Part shown: positions 10,001 through 63,583 of the stretch, piece by piece
How positions within the stretch are numbered: position 1 is the stretch's first letter
How the letters are laid out: each line of letters opens with the position of its first letter
From: a virus
Lineage: Duplodnaviria; Caudoviricetes
Length of the DNA: 64,000 nucleotides
Virus record (IMG/VR): IMGVR_UViG_3300021254_001514
Location: 18,853 to 82,852 of that record
Direction: 5' to 3' (one strand)
The notes under the pieces: model-generated
Database searches by the model: none
The model's input: only the letters and a program-made list of their open reading frames with translations
What the model was told of the DNA's origin: nothing
Translations under genes and position numbers: made by a program

Positions 10001-12561
10001 ACAGCCTCATTATTTTTATTATCATTTATATATTTCTGTGCCTGTGCCCACGTAGTTACGTTAGCAAGTCTAATTAATTCGCCTTTTTTTTCAGTAATTG
10101 CTTTTTCCGTAGCGGCCTTTTGTTCAACGTAAATATCTTTCCAACTCTCGATTTGATCTCGTTCATTCTTTTTATTTGGAAGATATTCCTGTATTGCATT
10201 ATATGCAGAACCAAGTTCATGTAAATGATAATAATATCCTATTGAATCATCAGTAGATAAATATAAATCCTTATTTAATTGTCCACCGTCTAATAATCCT
10301 TGACTTATATAGTAATCAAAATTAAGAATAAAATCAGTTAAAGGATAATTTTCTTCACTACGACCGATTGCACAATATCCTTGTTTACCAAATTCATTAT
10401 TATTGGGTGGAACAATGACCTTTGTAACAATCTGATTAGATTGAACCGTTCTTTGAATAGATTTTAAATCAATTCCATAGATAAAACTTAGTCCAGTTTC
10501 TTCGCCTACAGTCTCTACAAAATTAATATGTTTTTGAGGTTTCCCGTTTATGTAGATGAGATTGCCGTTTTCTTCATGTTCAATAGTAAATCTAACCCAA
10601 CATTCAAAAGTCTCTGCAATAGTTTGTAGAATGTTAAAACGATTAGATTTTTCTACCGTAATACTTCTTATCTTTTCATAGTCATCGTTAAACTGCGGTT
10701 TAACATAGCTTAAATTTAACGGTTCTGTTGCTTTGTATAAATATTTTATTTCTTTCGGGTCTGTAATTTTGGACGCGGTAGTTTTAGTTTTATTATAGTA
10801 ATTATAATAAACCTTTGATACAGATTGTGTATCTAAATCACCAGGATTAATACGGACAATATTGCCATTTGCGTCCTCGCCTTCTACATATTTAAAAACT
10901 TGTATTTCTTCTATCCATAAATCGCCCCTAATTAAATTCAGTACAAAGCGAACCCCATTATCTCCGTAAGTTTCTGATCGTGGAAAAGATTTTATACAAG
11001 TTAATTCCCGTTCAACCCAGTGTGTCGCGCTATCATATGTAATTGCACCGAGTCTAAAGAATGTCTCTGACGCGCCAGCCCCACGCTGAATATACAGATT
11101 TATCCTTGGGTCAGTGCTGCTTGCAGTAACATAAGTATCGCTTGGTAAATTACCGTTGCTCTTTCTAGCTTTGTATCTAAATATATACTTTTCTCCAATA
11201 GAAATTCCATTTGGAATATAGTTAGATAATTCTTTTAAGCCAGAATTACTATACTTACCAGCATTAGGGTCTGAAGTTGACCCCATTTTTAATAATAAAT
11301 AACTTTTTGAATCTAGCCAGTCATCCGCAGTTTGTGCGCTGGACGCGCTAATCTCTGGATAAAGTTTAAAGATTGGTATGTTAGAACCTTGCTCTGCCTG
11401 CCATCCATCTGTAGTAGTAAAATCTTTATTATTTACGAAAAGATTATTAACAGAAGTTGGTGATTTAAACTCAGAACTTCTATGGCAATAAATTACGTCG
11501 TCTTTAGAAATTAATCCAGAGTATGGGTCTTGTGAACCACTAGGAGCATCTGCTGTTGCTTTATATACATAGCAATATTTATTAGTTAAAGCATCATGTA
11601 CGCATACTTGAGACTGAACAAGGCGCGAAGCCCTATATCTAAAAGAGATTCCTTCTAAGTAATAAACAGCACCAATAATAGAACCATTTACTTTGAATAC
11701 AACATACTGTACTCCATCAACTTCGGTCTTTTCCCAAGTACACCCTTCTATTTTATAATTAGTACCATTAGATACTAATTGTCCGTTTGTTTCTGTTGTA
11801 TAATTTGAACTATACACAAATTCTAAATCTATAGTTCCTGAATTATCACTGCTTTCTACTATCTTTTGAATTTCACTATAAAAAACTAAAACTGTTGAAT
11901 CTTGAGGAATAGAAAAGGTCTCTTTTGTTATTTCATCAGTTGCATTAAATTGTATTTCTGTAACAAGTTCATATACAGGCTCTTCTTTGTATTGACGAAG
12001 TATATCATTTCCTGTTTCACTAATATCCCAATCAGTGCCTTCTACTACTTTTTTACCCAGTTCTACTGCGGTGCCTTGGTTGTTTTCCAATTCCGTATCA
12101 AAAGTTAATTCAAAACCGGTTTTAGATAATTCATTAATAAAACTATCAATACAGGTATATGTAATAGATTTTCCGGCAGAGTCCTCTTGGCAATTTTTTA
12201 TTACAAAATCATACCATTTGTTGTTGAAAAGAACTTTTACTTTTCTTTCATTTACAAGATATGGAAGATACGGATTTTGTACATTCGTTTCATCATAAAC
12301 GATCTTTTTAATTTGTTGACCATTAATAGTAACATATTCATCTTCAACACTTTCTTTTTTATAGCTATAATACATTTTGAAAGTAAAGGTGTTTGTACCA
12401 TTTATATTAGATACAAGTTTTGGCTCTACTGCACGACTCCTATCATTCATAGCATTAGAACCAATTATAGCTATCTTCTTTTCTTCGTAATGTTCAGGAA
12501 CATTACCTGTTGCAGGGACTAAATAATCTTCCCATAATGATATTTCATATTTACTTGTCAT
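7003..12561 (-). CDS. Large tail protein (baseplate hub/central fibre, Tal-like; 1852 aa)
   Basis: Follows Dit. Has a hub-like N-terminus, a possible carbohydrate-binding insert, a coiled coil, and a C-terminal G/T-rich region (ANLITSGQLDT). Confidence 0.75.
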   Translation of the reverse strand: MTSKYEISLWEDYLVPATGNVPEHYEEKKIAIIGSNAMNDRSRAVEPKLVSNINGTNTFTFKMYYSYKKESVEDEYVTINGQQIKKIVYDETNVQNPYLPYLVNERKVKVLFNNKWYDFVIKNCQEDSAGKSITYTCIDSFINELSKTGFELTFDTELENNQGTAVELGKKVVEGTDWDISETGNDILRQYKEEPVYELVTEIQFNATDEITKETFSIPQDSTVLVFYSEIQKIVESSDNSGTIDLEFVYSSNYTTETNGQLVSNGTNYKIEGCTWEKTEVDGVQYVVFKVNGSIIGAVYYLEGISFRYRASRLVQSQVCVHDALTNKYCYVYKATADAPSGSQDPYSGLISKDDVIYCHRSSEFKSPTSVNNLFVNNKDFTTTDGWQAEQGSNIPIFKLYPEISASSAQTADDWLDSKSYLLLKMGSTSDPNAGKYSNSGLKELSNYIPNGISIGEKYIFRYKARKSNGNLPSDTYVTASSTDPRINLYIQRGAGASETFFRLGAITYDSATHWVERELTCIKSFPRSETYGDNGVRFVLNLIRGDLWIEEIQVFKYVEGEDANGNIVRINPGDLDTQSVSKVYYNYYNKTKTTASKITDPKEIKYLYKATEPLNLSYVKPQFNDDYEKIRSITVEKSNRFNILQTIAETFECWVRFTIEHEENGNLIYINGKPQKHINFVETVGEETGLSFIYGIDLKSIQRTVQSNQIVTKVIVPPNNNEFGKQGYCAIGRSEENYPLTDFILNFDYYISQGLLDGGQLNKDLYLSTDDSIGYYYHLHELGSAYNAIQEYLPNKKNERDQIESWKDIYVEQKAATEKAITEKKGELIRLANVTTWAQAQKYINDNKNNEAVYTKVAAIASLQDSLPFINDQITKLTSAYNKLNEDIEEKEEEQEGYSDQIKALNEKFFNKYSRFIQEGTWYSDDYEDDNLYYLDALSVAYTSSRPQVSYNISVLKLDALEEFKSKVFNLGDIGSIIDTDFFGYVYINGIKTPYKEKVLISEVTYNFDEPEKDSFKIQNYKTQFEELFQRITAQTQALQFASGQYARAANVVTTQGTIQASTLEASLQANQNLVYSAKNELVKNDSTGITVSNSQNPNYKTKVTSGGVFVTTDGGTTWTSAVNGNGVSANLITSGQLDTKEVVIIDGNYPTFRWDTEGITAYNHTESGANFGKFVRFDQYGVYGMNKALDGANYVPANEQAIWDDGRFGLTWKGFFLKSITGQGQVEISTDNDILVSQNKEVSGEVQTIDRIKIGRINDPNEATKYGMVINDADGNTVLEAKDNGELWLEDKLHIVHREDTSGGETQVYDVKIGNLGIAQGEDKAQVINSSDNFIVYEDGSIVAKEGTFSGEISASTGSIGGFTIGEKGIYSKAGEGTEDNFDPYIKIESDDGTESNQTSITVGDIVLNGTDSTIEANGGQAFSISPELAVFNNIQARGKISSVIFETDKTQVVGGVMFFKTAYKVESTDITENSGTIYLEEEYSGSVGDYIYVINSNGRNVSLGKVTSISSSSDEGHPYINAIFRSNIDSTEVFSIVSLGKDGEIVIGINSTENSIESLKSQGITISEVVAQEGTEQIPVSATFNTKAFLGNLSNLNISGVSGYGLYSSNAFLNGSLTTQIDGNNYAGINTMAPVISDKFGGEDNDGNRIIIWGGANSTTEEGIRNAAFQVTKNGSLYANKGIFEGTVRSADIEASRIHGIGENGAPGLSFFNTTNGIAFYDVDYDEDQTQTPVFIIGQTGFTANGESFISINNGAASFVGSAAELGNLYTTGDDSLHIYEDKIDSSGGAKLELNNEEIKLYKDEDTNISMTDSEISINNDKVNVEGSLSIKNKMQYKPVTNGCNLYIM

Positions 12562-57088: not shown

Positions 57089-57331
57089 TTACTCCTTTAT
57101 AAGGAAATTATTAATTTTTTCACAAAGATCTTTAAATTCTTCTTCTTTTTCAGTATAGACGTTCATCCTTATAGGACGTATTAAGTCTAAACTAAAAATT
57201 CCCATAATTGATTTCGCGTCGACTACATACTTCCCATTTACCAAATCAATTTCTATAGGTAGTTCGTCTACTATTTTTACAAATTCTTTGATTTTAGAAA
57301 TAGAATTTAAACTAATTTTTGTACTAAACAT
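57089..57331 (-). CDS. HPr-family protein lacking the catalytic His
   Basis: VDAKSIMGIFSL (Ser46 motif); no histidine anywhere in the protein. Confidence 0.8.
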   Translation of the reverse strand: MFSTKISLNSISKIKEFVKIVDELPIEIDLVNGKYVVDAKSIMGIFSLDLIRPIRMNVYTEKEEEFKDLCEKINNFLIKE

Positions 57332-57403: not shown

Positions 57404-57682
57404 TCACTCTAAATAAACATCAATACACCAAACAGATTCTTCTGTCTCAAAAGTAACTATGTAATCTTTAACAAAGAATGGGCCATGTACATCTCCCCAT
57501 TCCTCAGAAGTTTCTAAATATTCAAATTCATTAAACTGGCACTCAGCCTTTGATTCTTTTAGAAAATTATAAAGATCCACAACATTTACAAAATCTTCTG
57601 TCATATAACAAGGGCCTTGGCACATTTTATCATCTTCTTTTAAGTAGTGAAACCTAACTATCCCTTTCATTTTTTTTCTCAT
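57404..57682 (-). CDS. Hypothetical protein
   Basis: Own promoter and RBS. Confidence 0.6.
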   Translation of the reverse strand: MRKKMKGIVRFHYLKEDDKMCQGPCYMTEDFVNVVDLYNFLKESKAECQFNEFEYLETSEEWGDVHGPFFVKDYIVTFETEESVWCIDVYLE

Positions 57683-57724
57683 TTTTTAAAACCCCTTTCT
57701 ATGTTTTCTTTATTATATTATACT

Positions 57725-57774
57725 ATAAAAAATAAAAAAAAGCAAATTTCTGGGAGTCTTTCCCAGAAATTTGC
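57725..57774 (-). terminator. Strong intrinsic terminator ending the RNA operon
   Basis: 14-bp stem GCAAATTTCTGGGA/TCCCAGAAATTTGC plus a long U-tract on the minus strand. Confidence 0.9.
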
Positions 57775-58350
57775 CACGACTCGGCGCGGGTTGTATAAAG
57801 ATACCGCCATACTCGAGAATATAATTTTTTGCCTATCGCCGTTAATCTAAGGCCCAACCCTTAGTGGTAGAGGTCTATCCCCTAGAGTTCCTTCTGTTCG
57901 ATTTATAACCCGCAGATATGAAGTGGGTGGACTCAGCTTGGTCCAATGCGGCAGGTCGATTTTACTAAGTAATAACCGCCTTTAGAAGCTTCCGACTTTT
58001 GGTTAACCAGACCTTTAGATAAGAGGATAAAGTCATAATCCCTCTTGACGAAGTGCGTGTCGTCCTACGAGCAAATCTCTGGGTTTGCTTTCCCTGGGAT
58101 TTCTCCCCGATCCCATACGGCTTTTTAATTTTACTGGTTAAGAAGGGATTTCAACCTTGGTTTGTTATGTTTGTTCATAATCGTCTTGGTACATAACGAC
58201 CTCAGGGGCTACGTTCGTCGCTCACGAGACCCAAGCTTTTTGTCTGACCAGCAGTAGGTCTAAACCTTGCTGCCAGTAGACAGTCTTGGCGCCAGCTTAT
58301 TAGTGCTGGCACGTCATATCCTGTCAATTCAGGCCTTACTACCCCTTGAA
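57775..58350 (-). ncRNA. Candidate large structured ncRNA A (about 575 nt; ROOL/GOLLD-like context)
   Basis: No credible ORF; many hairpins and long-range complementarity; lies between tRNA-Ile and a terminator. Confidence 0.6.
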
Positions 58351-58351
58351 G

Positions 58352-58425
58352 TAGAAAGAATGGGACTTGAACCCATGACCTTCGCCTTATCAGAGCGACG
58401 TTCTAACCAACTGAACTATCTTTCT
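58352..58425 (-). tRNA. tRNA-Ile(GAT)
   Basis: Cloverleaf; anticodon arm TCGCT-CTGATAA-GGCGA. Confidence 0.92.
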
Positions 58426-58429
58426 ATGT

Positions 58430-58770
58430 GCGAGGCTCAACCCTCGCTTGCAGAGAATGTCCCTGGAGTTCCCCAACTTTTTGTGCGGCATGGGTGGTGG
58501 GCACGAGACCGCCGCGGCTACAAGCCAATAGGTTTTCAGTTTCCATACTGATGTTACGGGGTTCTGGGCTTGGCGAGGTGATCACTACTCTACCACCCAT
58601 GGGATCCCACCTCAAACAAATTGAAGGCGTCACTTCTTTTTTTAAGGAGAATTGTCAACTTCCCAAGCACTATTACGTTGGTACTTTCACGGCTGTTTTC
58701 ATCAGCTTTAGCTTCTCGTCGGTGAAGCATCCGACTTGGTCTTTTTTCGACGCATAGGCAACCAAGAGGC
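58430..58770 (-). ncRNA. Candidate structured ncRNA B (about 340 nt)
   Basis: GC-rich spacer between tRNAs; 10-bp long-range pair CATGGGTGGT/ACCACCCATG. Confidence 0.45.
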
Positions 58771-58774
58771 CTAA

Positions 58775-58845
58775 AGCCGCCAGACGGATTTGAACCATCG
58801 TACACTGATTACAAATCAGTAGTCCTACCACTAGACGATGGCGGC
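58775..58845 (-). tRNA. tRNA-Thr(TGT)
   Basis: Cloverleaf; ACTGA-TTTGTAA-TCAGT. Confidence 0.9.
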
Positions 58846-58915
58846 AGGGCCAAATAGGTATATTATATTATACCTATTTGGTTTTAAAAAAAGAAAGAAG
58901 GACTATTATATAGTA

Positions 58916-59120
58916 AGTGCCGGGTGTGCAGTTTCAATCACACGCATCCATGTTGGGTTCAACGACTCGTAACTGAGGTAGCTTACGCGGATTTGTATTC
59001 CCAGAGCAAAACGCGATTTGGTCTTTGTAGTCCACCGCTGCCTACTGTGGTGTCTCCCCACTGCTTCCCAACGTACTGGCTTTATTCTCTTCACGACTTT
59101 TAATACTTGTCTACCGACAC
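58916..59120 (-). ncRNA. tRNA-like RNA with a roughly 140-nt domain replacing the anticodon arm
   Basis: Acceptor GTGTCGG/CCGGCAC, D-like hairpin at the 5' end, T-like arm at the 3' end. Confidence 0.55.
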
Positions 59121-59134
59121 AGAATTAAAACATA

Positions 59135-59323
59135 TTACTCATTTGAAACTATAATTTCCCAATCATCATCATAATGAAGAGCTAAACCTCCCCAAGTTCC
59201 ATGAATTTGGTGCATATCGTCTATATATTTAACGACTCCTTCACGGTCTCTATATTGAGGTTCACCGAACATATGATAAATATGGATAAGGTCTCCAGGT
59301 TCTACACAGGACTTTTCTTTCAT
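59135..59323 (-). CDS. DUF4314-like small protein
   Basis: GD.I.I.HM.GEP..GVV..IDD..QIHGTW; own promoter and GAGG RBS. Confidence 0.65.
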   Translation of the reverse strand: MKEKSCVEPGDLIHIYHMFGEPQYRDREGVVKYIDDMHQIHGTWGGLALHYDDDWEIIVSNE

Positions 59324-59445
59324 TTTCTTTCCTCACTTTCTATAAATAGTATATCAAAAAAATAATGAAAAGTCAATTTTTAAAACTGGGCTACGTCTAA
59401 AAGAAATAAATATTTTTCATATTTGATCTCTTTTGTTTTTAATAG

Positions 59446-59516
59446 TTGGGGATGAGGGTTATGCTCCCCCGCCTCATGGGTCAAAGCCATGCTTGCTACT
59501 ATTACACCAATCCCCA
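59446..59516 (-). tRNA. tRNA-Gln(TTG) with non-canonical T-loop
   Basis: CATGG-CTTTGAC-CCATG; T-loop AGCATAA. Confidence 0.8.
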
Positions 59517-59591
59517 TTATGTGGTTAAATTTCTAACCACTGTTCATCTGTATATTGTCGAATTTCCTTTTTGTTCGAGGTAAATTCAATG

Positions 59592-59674
59592 CGTCGCCAC
59601 CAGGACTCGAACCTGGACTACCGCGAGGTAGGATAGATTAGCAATCTATTGGAATACCCTTATCCCATAGCGAC
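59592..59674 (-). tRNA. tRNA-Ser(GCT)
   Basis: ATAGA-TTGCTAA-TCTAT; long variable arm. Confidence 0.88.
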
Positions 59675-59683
59675 ATATAATTA

Positions 59684-59786
59684 CATAATAGATAAGGATT
59701 TGCACCTTACATGATGACACTTTCAACCTATGTACACTTGGTGTTCATCTTATGCCATAAGCGTCTACCTATTCCGCCACTATTAT
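59684..59786 (-). ncRNA. Leu-type tRNA scaffold with aberrant, expanded anticodon region
   Basis: Acceptor ATAATAG/CTATTAT, D-arm GCGGAATAGGTAGACGC, T-arm TAAGG-TGCAAAT-CCTTA; no 7-nt anticodon loop. Confidence 0.55.
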
Positions 59787-59794
59787 GATTTAAT

Positions 59795-59920
59795 TTGTAA
59801 TGGTGACCCTAAGCTTCTTACCTTCCCCGACGTTTTACCCATTACTATTCTTAACAGCTGACACTATTAAGACCTTAGGAATAAGTTTTTCATCATAGAC
59901 CTGTCAGAACCTATGAATAG
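59795..59920 (-). ncRNA. Candidate compact doubly pseudoknotted RNA
   Basis: Complementary hairpin loops CUGACA/UGUCAG plus crossing helices. Confidence 0.45.
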
Positions 59921-59927
59921 CTTTGTG

Positions 59928-60000
59928 TACAGCCCCAAGGAGTCGAACCTTGTGTCATCGGGTATAAGCCGATTCCCCAAAACCGTCGAGGACGAGCTGC
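59928..60000 (-). tRNA. tRNA-Ile(TAT)
   Basis: ATCGG-CTTATAC-CCGAT; canonical T-arm; atypical G8 and D-loop. Confidence 0.75.
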
Positions 60001-60007
60001 ATAGTAG

Positions 60008-60091
60008 TGGAGGTAGAGGGAATCGAACCCACTCGAGCTATAAAGCGATAAATTTACAGTCTACCCCGTCTCCTTAACGGTTTATACCTCC
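60008..60091 (-). tRNA. tRNA-Tyr(GTA)
   Basis: GTAGA-CTGTAAA-TTTAT; long variable arm. Confidence 0.85.
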
Positions 60092-60228
60092 TTTTAAAAC
60101 TAAATCACATCGGCTCATTACTCGTGTACATCGAGGACATAACCGAACCATACCGAAACAATACAGGTATCGTCTTTTCTGGTGCTCTCGATTTAGTTGC
60201 TTTAAGCATGATTTAATATGTCTGCCTG

Positions 60229-60300
60229 TGGGCCCGGAGGGATTTGAACCCTCATCTTACAGATTAAAAGTCTGCCATTCTACCATTAAACTACAGGCCC
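60229..60300 (-). tRNA. tRNA-Lys(TTT)
   Basis: GCAGA-CTTTTAA-TCTGT. Confidence 0.92.
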
Positions 60301-60305
60301 ATAAT

Positions 60306-60381
60306 TACAGACGAAGGGACTCGAACCCTTAACCGTCGGATTAGAAGTCCGATGCTCTAATTCCTATTGAGCTACGCCTGT
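60306..60381 (-). tRNA. tRNA-Arg(TCT)
   Basis: TCGGA-CTTCTAA-TCCGA. Confidence 0.92.
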
Positions 60382-60387
60382 GTATGA

Positions 60388-60461
60388 TAGGGATGAGGAG
60401 ACTCGAACTCCCGACCTTCGGTTTAAGAGACCGCTACTCTCACCAACTGAGTTACATCCCA
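60388..60461 (-). tRNA. tRNA-Lys(CTT)
   Basis: GCGGT-CTCTTAA-ACCGA; 1:72 mismatch. Confidence 0.85.
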
Positions 60462-60462
60462 G

Positions 60463-60534
60463 CTCCCACAGTAGGACTCGAACCTACAACTTTCTGATTA
60501 ACAGTCAGATGCTCTACCATTGAACTATGTGGGA
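60463..60534 (-). tRNA. tRNA-Asn(GTT)
   Basis: TCTGA-CTGTTAA-TCAGA. Confidence 0.93.
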
Positions 60535-60539
60535 ATATA

Positions 60540-60624
60540 CGACAAGGGTGGGATTTGAACCCACGGACCTTTTAGGCCTCTGGTTTTCAAGACCAGCGCA
60601 ATAGACCAACTCTGCCACCTTGTC
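60540..60624 (-). tRNA. tRNA-Ser(TGA)
   Basis: CTGGT-CTTGAAA-ACCAG; long variable arm. Confidence 0.92.
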
Positions 60625-60637
60625 AAAGAGGATAAAA

Positions 60638-61360
60638 TTATTTTATCCTCACTACTTTATTATATAAACAAGTATGATTACCTATCGTAGTATCTGTATG
60701 ATGATGTCCAAAATACCAATGCTTAAATTCTAATCCAAAATCTTTTTCCAAATGCCAAAAGAACTGTGTTAATTCATCTGGATTAGGATGCATACTATAT
60801 AATCTTTGTAAAAGTTGAGTACCGCAACAATGGGTTAATACATAATCAACATTAAAATGAACCTTATCAAGATTGGCCATAGCCTCTTCATATTCTTCTT
60901 TTGAAGGCATTTCCTCTTTCCACCATGAATACCCCTCAATCCTGTATACTTTATCTACGGACATTGCGCCACCCATTGTGAAAAAAGATTTTCCATCTAT
61001 ATTATAGACCTGTCCTCTCATTAGATGAATTACGTGCGGCGCATGGGGATGTACCTGAACTTTTCCACCAAACATTTCAATAACTGGTTGCTGCGCCCAC
61101 CATGAATGAAAATCATGATTCCCATCTATAAAAAGAGTCGTGTACTTTTGATTCTCAAGCCAGTTGATCCAATAATAATATTCACCCACTCCATCTTTAT
61201 ATTCATCCAGGTCAGCAGGACAAAAAGGAAGTCCAAAATCTCCAAGGACAATCATATAATCATTTCTTGTTAAGGTGTCGCCCATATTTTGTTCAAATAC
61301 GACTAACTTATCAATATCTAAATAACCATGAACATCTCCAGTAACAAAGATTCTGCTCAT
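60638..61360 (-). CDS. Calcineurin-like metallophosphoesterase
   Basis: GDVHG, LGDFG, DGNHD, TH and FGHHH motifs. Confidence 0.9.
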   Translation of the reverse strand: MSRIFVTGDVHGYLDIDKLVVFEQNMGDTLTRNDYMIVLGDFGLPFCPADLDEYKDGVGEYYYWINWLENQKYTTLFIDGNHDFHSWWAQQPVIEMFGGKVQVHPHAPHVIHLMRGQVYNIDGKSFFTMGGAMSVDKVYRIEGYSWWKEEMPSKEEYEEAMANLDKVHFNVDYVLTHCCGTQLLQRLYSMHPNPDELTQFFWHLEKDFGLEFKHWYFGHHHTDTTIGNHTCLYNKVVRIK

Positions 61361-61399
61361 CCTATCTTCTCCCTTCCTTCTTTATAAGAACTTCTTTAG

Positions 61400-61481
61400 T
61401 ACCGGCAGAGGGACTCGAACCCTCACGGCCAAAGACCCTGGGATTTTAAGTCCCATGCGGCTACCATTACGCCATGCCGGC
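61400..61481 (-). tRNA. tRNA-Leu(TAA)
   Basis: TGGGA-CTTAAAA-TCCCA; variable arm. Confidence 0.92.
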
Positions 61482-61631
61482 AAATGCGGGTACGTTTTAG
61501 GCTACCATCCCGCTTCAATGCCACGCCGGATTTTCAATTAGGTCGGGCGCGCGACCAATTATACCAGGTTTTTTCTTTCTTTCTTTATCTTATATATATA
61601 TTATAATAAATATTCTTTAAAAAGTCAAATA

Positions 61632-61865
61632 TTATTTAGGAAAATGCTGAAAATAAATTTCAAGATTCTCGCAAACCTTACCAGCTTTTACCATTCTACC
61701 AAATCTCTTTGCTGCTCGATTCCGAATGATGTCTGGGCGATAAGACTCCGAAAAGAACTTAATTGCACCATTGATCGTCTGCCATCCATCATTAATATTC
61801 ATAATCTGCCCATCGCACATCGTACGCGCCTGCTGACTCCAGCTCCTTGAATTATAAGCCTTCAT
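61632..61865 (-). CDS. Hypothetical protein (77 aa)
   Basis: Own promoter and AAGGAG RBS. Confidence 0.65.
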   Translation of the reverse strand: MKAYNSRSWSQQARTMCDGQIMNINDGWQTINGAIKFFSESYRPDIIRNRAAKRFGRMVKAGKVCENLEIYFQHFPK

Positions 61866-61972
61866 ATAATTAACTCCTTTCAGAATCAATTTCCTTTTTT
61901 CATCTTACATATATATTATAACAAATATTTTTTAAAAAATCAAATATTAAAAAAGAAAATTTTACAAATAAG

Positions 61973-62044
61973 CGATCTTATAGGGAATCGAACCCTAATT
62001 TTCGGAGAGACAATCCGATGTAATAGCCGTTATACTATAAGACC
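61973..62044 (-). tRNA. tRNA-Asp(GTC)
   Basis: TCGGA-TTGTCTC-TCCGA. Confidence 0.88.
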
Positions 62045-62047
62045 AAA

Positions 62048-62126
62048 TGCCCTCGGAGAGACTCGAACTCTCACGCTCGCGCACTAGTTCCTAAGACTAG
62101 CGTGTCTACCATTCCACCACAAGGGC
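62048..62126 (-). tRNA. tRNA-Leu(TAG)
   Basis: CTAGT-CTTAGGA-ACTAG. Confidence 0.92.
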
Positions 62127-62129
62127 TAG

Positions 62130-62750
62130 AGGGGAGAGAATTATATATCTCCCCTTTCTCTTTCTATATAAAATCCCCTATGCTATTATGCTTACACCAC
62201 CAGACCTGGGGAAGAACTAAATATATGGCTCTCAAAGAAAGAGAAAACCTTTCACCATATACTTTTAATTAGTATATACAATCCTGTATTCTAGGGCATA
62301 TACTAGACCCTGTTCAGTTTAGTCGGTCTGACAACCGCCACGATAGCCTGCCGAGGACGGACAGCAATCCCGCCAATTACGTGGGTCTAAACGCCACGCC
62401 GGTTCAGTTTGATTTTACCACACCCGGTTATCTACCCTCTGTGGAATGCGCAGCCAGGTTCTGCGCTCGCCTTAATCTCAAAAGAACTTTCGGAAGTTAT
62501 TAACTTTTATCCGCATCGGATTTCTCATCATCAGGAGTTAACCGAAACACCTAAGGTTTTTTGTTCTTTAGGCTCAAACCTGTTTAGTATTGTGAGACTA
62601 TTTAGATTGTTTCCAAAGTGGTCTATTCGGATTATCTAATTATAACGTAAGGATAAAGTCTCCTACCCCCAGCAATATATCGTGTTGCTTTACGTATGCA
62701 CAGCGCATAAACTCTATCTTCTTTTTGACCTATGGCAAGATAAGAACCAT
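62130..62750 (-). ncRNA. Candidate large structured ncRNA E (about 620 nt)
   Basis: No credible ORF on the transcribed strand; multi-hairpin; between tRNA-fMet and tRNA-Leu. Confidence 0.55.
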
Positions 62751-62753
62751 AAA

Positions 62754-62827
62754 TAGCGGGGACAGGATTTGAACCTGTGACCTTCAGGTCATGAGCCTGA
62801 CGAGCTTCCGAGCTGCTCCACCCCGCG
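62754..62827 (-). tRNA. tRNA-Met(CAT), initiator-like
   Basis: CGCGGGGTGGAGCAG start, C1:U72 mismatch, TCAGG-CTCATGA-CCTGA. Confidence 0.9.
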
Positions 62828-62830
62828 ATA

Positions 62831-62932
62831 ATACCATCAGTAAGGAATCGAACCTTATCCTCCGGCTCTGAGTATCTATTGGTTAAATAGCCTCCGGAGC
62901 CAGTGTGCCGCCATTACACTATATAATAGTAT
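62831..62932 (-). ncRNA. tRNA scaffold with an inserted hairpin in the anticodon loop
   Basis: D-arm GTGT-AATGGCG-GCAC, stem CTGGCTC/GAGCCGG enclosing 28 nt, T-arm TAAGG-TTCGATT-CCTTA. Confidence 0.6.
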
Positions 62933-62986
62933 CTATACTACTAAAGTAACTAACTTTTTCATATAGAGTTATTATAATGCCTTTTG

Positions 62987-63320
62987 TCACGTTCTACGAC
63001 TTCCATTATAGTCGAAATTCTGCGCTGGTGGTATTGTTGTGTATCTCCTCATAGGGAGTCCAGTAACTTCTGGAACTGACATCTCGGTTCTGGTTTGCAA
63101 CCCATCGCCGTTTTCCTTGGCATTTGTTCACTTTCTATAATTATTATAGTTAATTTTTTCAAAAGAATCAAATTTTAACAACTTCATATCTCGTTCCACG
63201 ACTCCCGTTATAGTCGGAATTCTGCGCGCGAATGGTACTGTTGTATCGTCTTTGGAGACGACCTGGGCCGCCAGGCGGATATTCTCTGCGGGGTTGGGAT
63301 CCGTCTCTTCCGCAGTTTGT
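62987..63320 (-). ncRNA. Two copies of an unknown structured RNA motif
   Basis: 62987-63025 vs 63189-63227: 34/39 identical with a compensatory pair. Confidence 0.6.
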
Positions 63321-63334
63321 ATTGTTGATTTAAT

Positions 63335-63403
63335 TGAAAACGTCAGATTCGAACTGCGCCTCTACATCCCAAGTGTAGCGTGCTACCATTACACCACGTT
63401 CTC
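63335..63403 (-). tRNA. tRNA-Pro(TGG)
   Basis: CTACA-CTTGGGA-TGTAG; imperfect T-stem. Confidence 0.8.
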
Positions 63404-63511
63404 AAAAATAATGCCTTTCGCAACTAAGATTTTCGAGACGCATCTCTACTCATCACACGTCCGTGAACGCTGTCTTTCACCGTACTATCCGAAGAATAAC
63501 GGAGGGCTTCG

Positions 63512-63583
63512 TAACCTTGATGGGATTTGAACCCATGACTTCGCCGTGAAAGGGCGACGGCTTAACCACTTGCCGACAAGGCC
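63512..63583 (-). tRNA. tRNA-Glu(TTC)
   Basis: TCGCC-CTTTCAC-GGCGA. Confidence 0.92.

Follow-up and report, generated by a model that had tools for sequence, protein, structure and literature searches.

Results

A tRNA array that ends in a non-coding tail

The window is a stretch of 64,000 nt, and all coordinates below refer to it. It derives from an 82.8-kb IMG/VR virus record (IMGVR_UViG_3300021254_001514) that is ~71% complete and whose encoded proteins include a terminase-like protein, a portal, a metallophosphoesterase and an RNA ligase. An array of 17 tRNA genes lies on the minus strand (58351-63583), 16 of them found by ARAGORN and one more by Rfam. The last element of this array is a non-coding stretch, RNA_A, whose 5' boundary is set by the tRNA-Ile(GAU) gene directly upstream (tRNA end at 58351/58352) and which extends to a terminator (Table 1). 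Six of the 15 stem pairs of the terminator are G-C and the stem is followed by TTTTTTTATT, which qualifies it as intrinsic (Rho-independent); within the tRNA region it is the sole convincing minus-strand terminator. In the related strain L086 the change A580G keeps a terminator pair as G-U. An earlier note on this DNA, made from the sequence alone, had placed the start of the segment right after tRNA-Ile(GAT) and its end at a 14-bp terminator, and both boundaries are borne out, with a stem of 15 bp instead of 14.

The promoter-like site listed in Table 1 is a consensus match and is not evidence of function. A promoter predicted at this place could drive a unit made up of a 62-aa ORF, tRNA-Thr, tRNA-Ile and the tail. 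Two further gaps in the array, 62127-62752 (626 nt) and 62829-63332 (504 nt), both on the minus strand, have a GC content of 0.41 and no ORF of at least 80 aa on the tRNA strand, and are candidates for further non-coding RNAs. Beyond the terminator, an 80-aa protein encoded at 57089-57331 (minus strand) has a weak likeness to the PTS HPr phosphocarrier (Pfam E = 2.7e-4, under the curated cut-off).

Table 1 Features of the distal end of the tRNA array, in window coordinates
Feature	Position	Strand	Remarks
Promoter-like site (TTGACT, 17 nt, TG-TATACT)	59348..59376	-	consensus scan alone
Second module copy, diverged type 2	58425..58519	-	R1 45.3 bits, E ~1e-9 to 3e-12
tRNA-Ile(GAU)	58351..58425	-	ARAGORN and Rfam tRNA model, 74.4 bits; no encoded CCA
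RNA_A, whole non-coding tail of the tRNA operon	57741..58350	-	~610 nt; starts 3' of tRNA-Ile, ends with the terminator
Domain I (RNA_A 1-150)	58201..58350	-	closed multi-helix junction, four hairpins; MFE -57.1 kcal/mol
Hairpin H1 (CCUG / loop AAUUGA / CAGG)	58320..58333	-	recurring module
Middle region (RNA_A 151-392)	57959..58200	-	lineage-specific; no support for a defined fold (z -0.5 to +0.9)
H-type pseudoknot module, type 1	57842..57958	-	115 nt; R1 109.7 bits
P1 (CCGCA/UGCGG)	57951-57947 / 57914-57910	-	module helix
P2	57945-57941 / 57932-57928	-	module helix, inside P1
Knot	57923-57920 / 57894-57891 and 57916-57915 / 57899-57898	-	six pairs
P3	57884-57879 / 57873-57868	-	module hairpin
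P4	57863-57859 / 57852-57848	-	module hairpin, conserved loop GUUGNG
3' linker, module to terminator	57776..57841	-	z = +0.2; partial likeness to L019 alone
Intrinsic terminator	57741..57775	-	15-bp stem, 5-nt loop, U-run

Coding potential, composition and fold stability of the tail

All six frames of RNA_A, on both strands, carry stops of mixed types (8-13 per frame), and the longest open run is 62 codons; because of this, no stop reassignment opens a frame. The claim that the segment has no credible ORF thus holds under any reading of the stop codons, and a hidden ORF under recoded stops was rejected. The higher GC content noted earlier is likewise confirmed: it is 0.46 in RNA_A versus 0.28-0.36 in the flanking coding DNA, and exceeds that of the AT-rich genome by 10-15 points.

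The entire RNA_A is more stable than shuffled sequences, to an equal degree for the two strands (z of about -3.1 and -3.3). Two hairpins proposed on inspection, GCCAGC/GCUGGC and CAGCA-AGGU/ACCU-UGCUG, are both present in the minimum-energy fold. The description 'highly structured' applies to the first 150 nt, Domain I (z = -3.66, reached by 0 of 200 shuffles), and does not extend to the other 150-nt windows, in which z lies between -0.5 and +0.9. The antisense strand of Domain I has a z of -2.7, and a search of ~150 related loci with nhmmer returned no homologs of this domain apart from hairpin H1. At the other end of the tail, the nhmmer match with L019 reaches RNA_A position 549. A T-loop-like element that had been pointed out (AAGG-UUGAAAU-CCCUU) falls in no tRNA-like match by ARAGORN or a permissive Rfam scan; we also considered it as a tRNA remnant, for which the tRNA searches gave no support.

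Comparison with known RNA families

At family thresholds, Rfam 15 identified tRNA and nothing else across the window, and permissive Rfam 15 scans of RNA_A and of the module described below returned noise alone at E ≤ 10. Self-cleaving ribozymes, group I/II introns, tmRNA, RNase P, 6S and riboswitches all lack a match in Rfam 15. On six related loci, the same library identified tRNAs and one tmRNA, and nothing further.

The earlier note had assigned the segment to the ROOL/GOLLD class or to a new one, and had proposed a search against Rfam, including the ROOL, GOLLD and intron models; this search places no family on RNA_A at E ≤ 10. ROOL RNAs are phage-encoded, ~580-660 nt long, ORF-free and situated near tRNA islands in rumen and gut samples, and they assemble as a homo-octameric cage (PMC12286853). 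GOLLD RNAs occur near phage tRNAs; their 3' region is conserved, their 5' region is less so, and their linker contains tRNAs (PMC12286853). RNA_A is like ROOL in its phage location, its proximity to tRNA genes, its length of roughly 600 nt and its lack of an ORF. Its layout is analogous to that of GOLLD, with the conserved module on the 3' side of a variable part and a tRNA separating two copies of the module. The ROOL fold has 19 conserved stems, whereas in RNA_A just 115 nt and one hairpin are conserved. The arrangement analogous to that of GOLLD is confined to RNA_A 392-558 as the conserved part, with tRNA-Ile between the module copies, and involves no homology; the conserved part is 115 nt in RNA_A as against 416 positions in the GOLLD model.

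Membership in ROOL (RF03087) is defined by at least 99.1 bits (curated) against a 574-position covariance model, and membership in GOLLD (RF02032) by at least 150 bits (curated) against a 416-position model of the conserved 3' region. At E ≤ 10 the 82.8-kb record as a whole contains no match to either model, and permissive scans for ROOL of 57600-59500 and 57959-58350 were empty; RNA_A therefore belongs to neither family, and this part of the earlier assignment fails. A divergent ROOL, GOLLD or other catalogued RNA (intron, tmRNA, RNase P or riboswitch) would share the phage origin, the tRNA neighbourhood and the size of ~600 nt with the published families (PMC12286853). Since even permissive filters bring up no Rfam 15 match for the stretch or for the module, we consider such an identity extremely improbable, and at the level of covariance models it is refuted.

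A family of H-type pseudoknots with a copy in the tail

The metallophosphoesterase in the array, used as an anchor, led to four distant phage contigs. The first distant homolog of any part of RNA_A, ~80 nt found by nhmmer, came from the tRNA array of one of these four, locus L004. Two other anchors were less productive: a 92-aa neighbour protein retrieved identical copies and one 686-nt contig that ends before the RNA, and the 62-aa protein retrieved many relatives, none with the RNA. A pattern made from the shared block, and then looser patterns, yielded further copies, from IMG/VR as well as from JGI metagenomes. Eight copies served to build a covariance model, R1, which has at least 78 matches, representing at least 63 distinct sequences, among the IMG/VR and JGI contigs. 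Because a pattern scan picks up copies with the exact words alone, the family is larger than counted. A scan of 185,579 prokaryote species genomes with the motif pattern gave chance matches alone, in GC-rich bacteria, and a blastn search of 50,697 phage records with RNA_A and the module as queries gave no match. A scan with a type-2 pattern added nothing new. We found no description of the family in Rfam 15 or in the literature searched, the 8,495 IMG/VR candidates of PMC10690425 lying outside the comparison.

In the module, helix P1 encloses hairpin P2 and the invariant word CCACCCA. The knot is formed by 4+2 bases in the P1 loop that pair downstream of P1, and its 5' strand is contiguous with the 3' strand of P1. 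An A/U-rich connecting loop, UAUAUAAAU, is followed by the invariant GGAACU and then by P3 and P4. The invariant words of the family are CCACCCA, UAUAAAU, ACA, GGAACU and GGUUGNGC, and all are in the copy within RNA_A, which we refer to as type 1. No invariant base and none of the 29 pairs is lost in this copy, which has canonical helices throughout and scores in the top third of the family; the score is partly so by construction, since the copy was one of the eight seeds of R1. The covariation support for the family stands independent of this copy.

Among 45 aligned members, pairing holds in 98.6% of cells, compared with 35-50% after sliding of the 3' partners. Since this alignment was fitted to R1, the figure of 98.6% is somewhat inflated; an unfitted MAFFT alignment of eight sequences gives the same picture. 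Double changes occur at 21 of the 29 pairs, and none of 500 shuffles attains such values. The 4-bp core of the knot is fully paired in 44 of the 45 members and occurs in ten Watson-Crick versions (CCUC/GAGG, CUUC/GAAG in this window, CGCU/AGCG, CCUU/AAGG, CUCG/CGAG, CGCG/CGCG and four more). The two outer knot pairs emerged from a mutual-information scan, which also brought out a candidate base triple: a column between P1 and P2, U or C, tracks an adjacent U-A or C-G pair, and so behaves as a major-groove triple would. A further pairing between the P4 loop and the linker (columns 176-188) has 30 standard pairs in 44 members, and is sterically tight and register-dependent. G-U pairs are frequent, with 28 at one P2 pair, which identifies the tRNA strand as the strand of this RNA.

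These results show that the stretch holds an intact copy of an uncatalogued 115-nt H-type pseudoknot RNA family. Homologs and covariation, which the earlier note had called for, are thus found for the 115-nt module, whose covariation is strong; for ~355 nt of the tail, ~150 related loci gave no distant homolog. Its suggestion of a new class is upheld in part, for the pseudoknot family and a recurring hairpin, with no sign that the 575 nt it described form one conserved RNA.

The proposed long-range pairing

The earlier note had also proposed a long-range pseudoknot in which GGUAG and UAAGGCC near the 5' end pair with CUACC and GGCCUUA ~480 nt downstream. This is not supported, because each 3' partner is a strand of a local hairpin that is conserved. 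CUACC (57866-57870) is the 3' strand of P3 with the first flanking base on its 3' side, and GGCCUUA (57848-57854) consists of the last two bases of the P4 loop and the 3' strand of P4; across the family, covariation supports both P3 and P4 as local hairpins. On the 5' side, UAAGGCC overlaps the conserved hairpin H1 (58320-58333). In strain L086 the change A11U breaks GGUAG:CUACC and has no compensating change. By our arithmetic ~11 perfect 7-nt complements are expected by chance in 611 nt, and we count the long-range pairing as a chance complement.

Genomic context of the module and a second copy in the array

Many large uncultured phages have the module, which nearly always lies in tRNA arrays, on the tRNA strand. 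It is present once in each of four complete or nearly complete phage genomes of 137-200 kb, and twice in the record studied here. The second copy, a diverged type 2, lies outside the segment that the earlier note described. Its P1, P3 and P4 could be aligned, it ends ~1 nt before tRNA-Ile, and by nhmmer it matches the copy in L017. Within RNA_A itself, R1 with filters off found no further module copies, and there are no internal repeats.

About 15 of the 63 distinct copies collected end 0-5 nt before a tRNA, and the tRNAs just 3' of module copies have eight identities (Gly, Met, Asp, Pro, Ile, Gln, Thr and Glu). At least nine copies begin 1-3 nt past a tRNA-like CCA end, and in L017 the module exactly fills the gap between two tRNAs. 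This abutment to tRNA ends fits release by tRNA processing. Other copies follow terminator-like U-runs or unrelated modules, and the flanks of the module fall into many unrelated clusters; given these heterogeneous contexts, release by tRNA enzymes would not be universal. The type-1 copy is 392 nt from the nearest tRNA, and the module thus needs no adjacent tRNA.

Genes for a metallophosphoesterase and an RNA ligase are in or near the array studied here and nearby in several loci of the family. The metallophosphoesterase gene lies ~120-260 nt downstream of the module in L020 (~4595-3906, minus strand), L053 and L143, and no more than a few kb away in four more loci.

These contexts bear on the proposal that the module acts in cis on the tRNA precursor, as a self-cleaving ribozyme or as a processing or folding element by which the ends of neighboring tRNAs would be defined. 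Many invariant unpaired bases in a compact knot are a ribozyme-like trait, the frequent abutment to a tRNA 3' CCA end and a tRNA 5' end is what such an element might show, and the nearby phosphoesterase and RNA ligase could heal cleavage ends. However, one or two copies per genome compare with 16-28 tRNAs, the spacing to the downstream tRNA is variable, the type-1 copy in this window adjoins no tRNA and no self-cleaving class in Rfam matches. A cis role of this kind therefore appears distinctly unlikely.

Several arrays contain other unusual elements. In L021 (6600-6745, minus strand) the 3' half of the module (GGAACU, P3 and P4) is present in tandem duplicate before tRNA-Gln. A conserved domain of ~90 nt that starts with UGAGGRAAGUAGGC lies 3' of the module in one subgroup, namely L004 (7392-7556), L018, L020, L143, L117, L067 and L071; the L004 version, with a closing acceptor-like helix and a T-arm, resembles an oversized tRNA. 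Another part of L004 (6406-6962) has the look of a split tRNA, with tRNA-like halves around an ORF of ~440 nt that has an in-frame TAG. A tRNA with the anticodon CUA (12152-12242) in the same array suggests TAG recoding in L004.

Hairpin H1 and the remainder of the tail

Outside the pseudoknot module, a further part of RNA_A that recurs is hairpin H1. We found nine distinct instances in 1.5 Mb, in L076, L103, L138, L140, L147, L024 and L006, compared with a chance expectation that we estimate at ~0.4, and H1 is present in L227 and L228 as well. Compensatory versions with a CUUG/CAAG stem occur in L086 and L006; in L086 the changes C19U and G30A compensate each other within H1. In RNAs of the L004 type, H1 with its loop and 5' flank stands directly upstream of the module.

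In L004 (7200-7274), L076, L103, L138, L147, L227 and L228 a 75-nt unit of three hairpins ends in a hairpin with an AAUUGN loop. The unit starts right after tRNA-like CCA ends and is followed by the knot module or by a different element; in L227 and L228 the H1-bearing unit is followed by something other than the knot. The occurrence of the H1 unit with or without the knot in relatives leads us to conclude that these phages shuffle small RNA modules among tRNAs. RNA_A is one concatenation of such shuffled small RNA modules.

The remainder of the tail is confined to close relatives. RNA_A is identical in L013 and L014, the identical copies found being in an ENA and a Logan contig, and is 98.9% identical, with eight differing positions, in L086, a 1.5-kb contig. 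ENA sample ERZ27256903 contains a relative in the 80-95% identity range. Searches of ~150 related loci with nhmmer returned no homologs of RNA_A 1-395 and 500-611 except L086 and the recurring H1. For ~355 nt of the tail, nhmmer and blastn found no homolog beyond the 99%-identical strain in ~150 motif-bearing loci, and these ~355 nt, which are without comparative support, may be spacer. A 27-nt block (a CCAGGGA...CAGAGA hairpin) is common to RNA_A and L004 and is a weak lead.

Two readings of the tail as a whole turn on these observations. In the first, the whole 610 nt would be one large ornate RNA of a new class, GOLLD-like, with a 3' core that is conserved and a 5' part that evolves fast, and possibly self-assembling. 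The motif in L004 occupies a comparable place within a gap of ~590 nt that is bounded by tRNAs and lacks long ORFs. H1, which directly adjoins the motif in L004-type RNAs, lies ~360 nt upstream of it here, as if an expansion had been inserted, and the 27-nt block is common to RNA_A and L004. Domain I folds unusually well and the H1 loop has a self-complementary AAUU. On the other hand, the 115-nt module stands alone between two tRNAs in L017 and other loci, its flanks sort into a large number of unrelated groups, and there are cases of the upstream module without the motif. Together with the 355 nt that lack a homolog and the absence of a thermodynamic signal in the middle region, this makes a single large RNA unlikely, if still worth considering.

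In the second, the stretch would, terminator aside, be functionless spacer with a decaying module duplicate and other remnants. This would account for the lack of conservation in the 355 nt, for neutral z-scores in most windows and for the shuffling of modules among phages. It does not sit well with a type-1 copy that retains every invariant base and all 29 pairs with a top-third score, with a GC content 10-15 points above that of the AT-rich genome, or with a compensatory pair maintained between two strains. We judge it very unlikely.

Two other non-coding stretches lie upstream in the same part of the array. In the gap that separates tRNA-Thr from tRNA-Ile, the first 255 nt from the 5' side (58520-58774, minus strand), upstream of the type-2 copy, are ORF-free with a GC content of 0.50 and have no homolog in the fetched loci. 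The region 58846-59134 (minus strand), which follows the 62-aa ORF, has a weak nhmmer likeness over ~200 nt to L156, L058, L150 and L066 (E from 5e-4 to 0.09) and, on this likeness, may be another conserved non-coding element or a leader.

Discussion

The reading that we favor, and regard as probable, treats the stretch as an assembly of separable RNA modules that forms the non-coding 3' tail of a phage tRNA operon, and not as one conserved giant RNA. In its identity part, a modular non-coding tail with a copy of a pseudoknot family, we have considerable confidence; a trans-acting, partner-binding mechanism of the module, as a stable RNA that tRNA processing would release, is put forward tentatively.

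Under the modular reading, the tRNA operon would be transcribed as one precursor. A cut by RNase P at tRNA-Ile would free the type-2 copy upstream, and a cut by RNase Z after the CCA-less tRNA-Ile would free the ~610-nt tail, the 3' end of which would be shielded by the terminator hairpin. The invariant unpaired bases of the knot would offer a putative binding surface for a partner, which we would guess to belong to tRNA or translation metabolism or to host defense against it. The single copy, the strictly conserved surface bases and the independence from an adjacent tRNA point to a gene-like RNA with one partner, as opposed to a per-tRNA element. The constant company of tRNAs and the nearby phosphoesterase and RNA ligase lead us to tRNA or translation biology, or its defense, as a guess that may well prove wrong; the putative function of the module is deduced wholly from its position.

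A more far-reaching idea is that the knot represents a new functional RNA class of large phages in tRNA biology, such as a self-cleaving or trans-acting processing ribozyme or a decoy against a host's tRNA-targeting defense, and that the tail is a split, expanded form. If this were true, the 610-nt tail would be an expanded version in which a 355-nt insertion separates H1 from the knot, its neighbor in relatives, and in which the two refold together. We consider this a long shot.

By position, the closest analogue is the pair of T4 RNAs known as species 1 (rnaC, 139 nt) and species 2 (rnaD, 119 nt), which are tRNA-sized stable RNAs at the distal end of the tRNA cluster. Both are presumably released together with the tRNAs, and to our knowledge their functions have gone unexplained for decades. 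They lie on the tRNA strand, just past the last tRNA (NC_000866 annotation), and a search of the T4 locus with R1 (NC_000866 69500-72500, filters off) gave at best 3.5 bits, with no sequence or structure match. Unlike rnaC and rnaD, the module is an H-type pseudoknot supported by covariation, embedded here in a 610-nt tail.

As to the topology of the module, an HDV-like arrangement was rejected by reasoning from the strand order. The SAM-II and preQ1-II aptamers and the telomerase RNA core are H-type pseudoknots with groove-bound loops and base triples. The module is like these in its coaxially abutting stems without a linker, its A/U-rich third loop and its candidate major-groove triple. It differs from SAM-II and preQ1-II in having no Rfam riboswitch match, and we claim no homology; its location in a tRNA array implies that, in contrast to riboswitches, it has no expression platform to control.

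Large phages with tRNA arrays also carry structured RNAs of unassigned role, among them ROOL, GOLLD and T4 rnaC and rnaD. To these the locus adds a compact RNA family with very strong covariation support that is absent from Rfam 15. Its small size (115 nt), defined knot and candidate base triple make the module a tractable experimental target. The reading of the stretch as a 'giant ornate RNA' is corrected, being supported for just a fifth of its length; instead, the locus shows phage 'RNA islands' built from shuffling modules.
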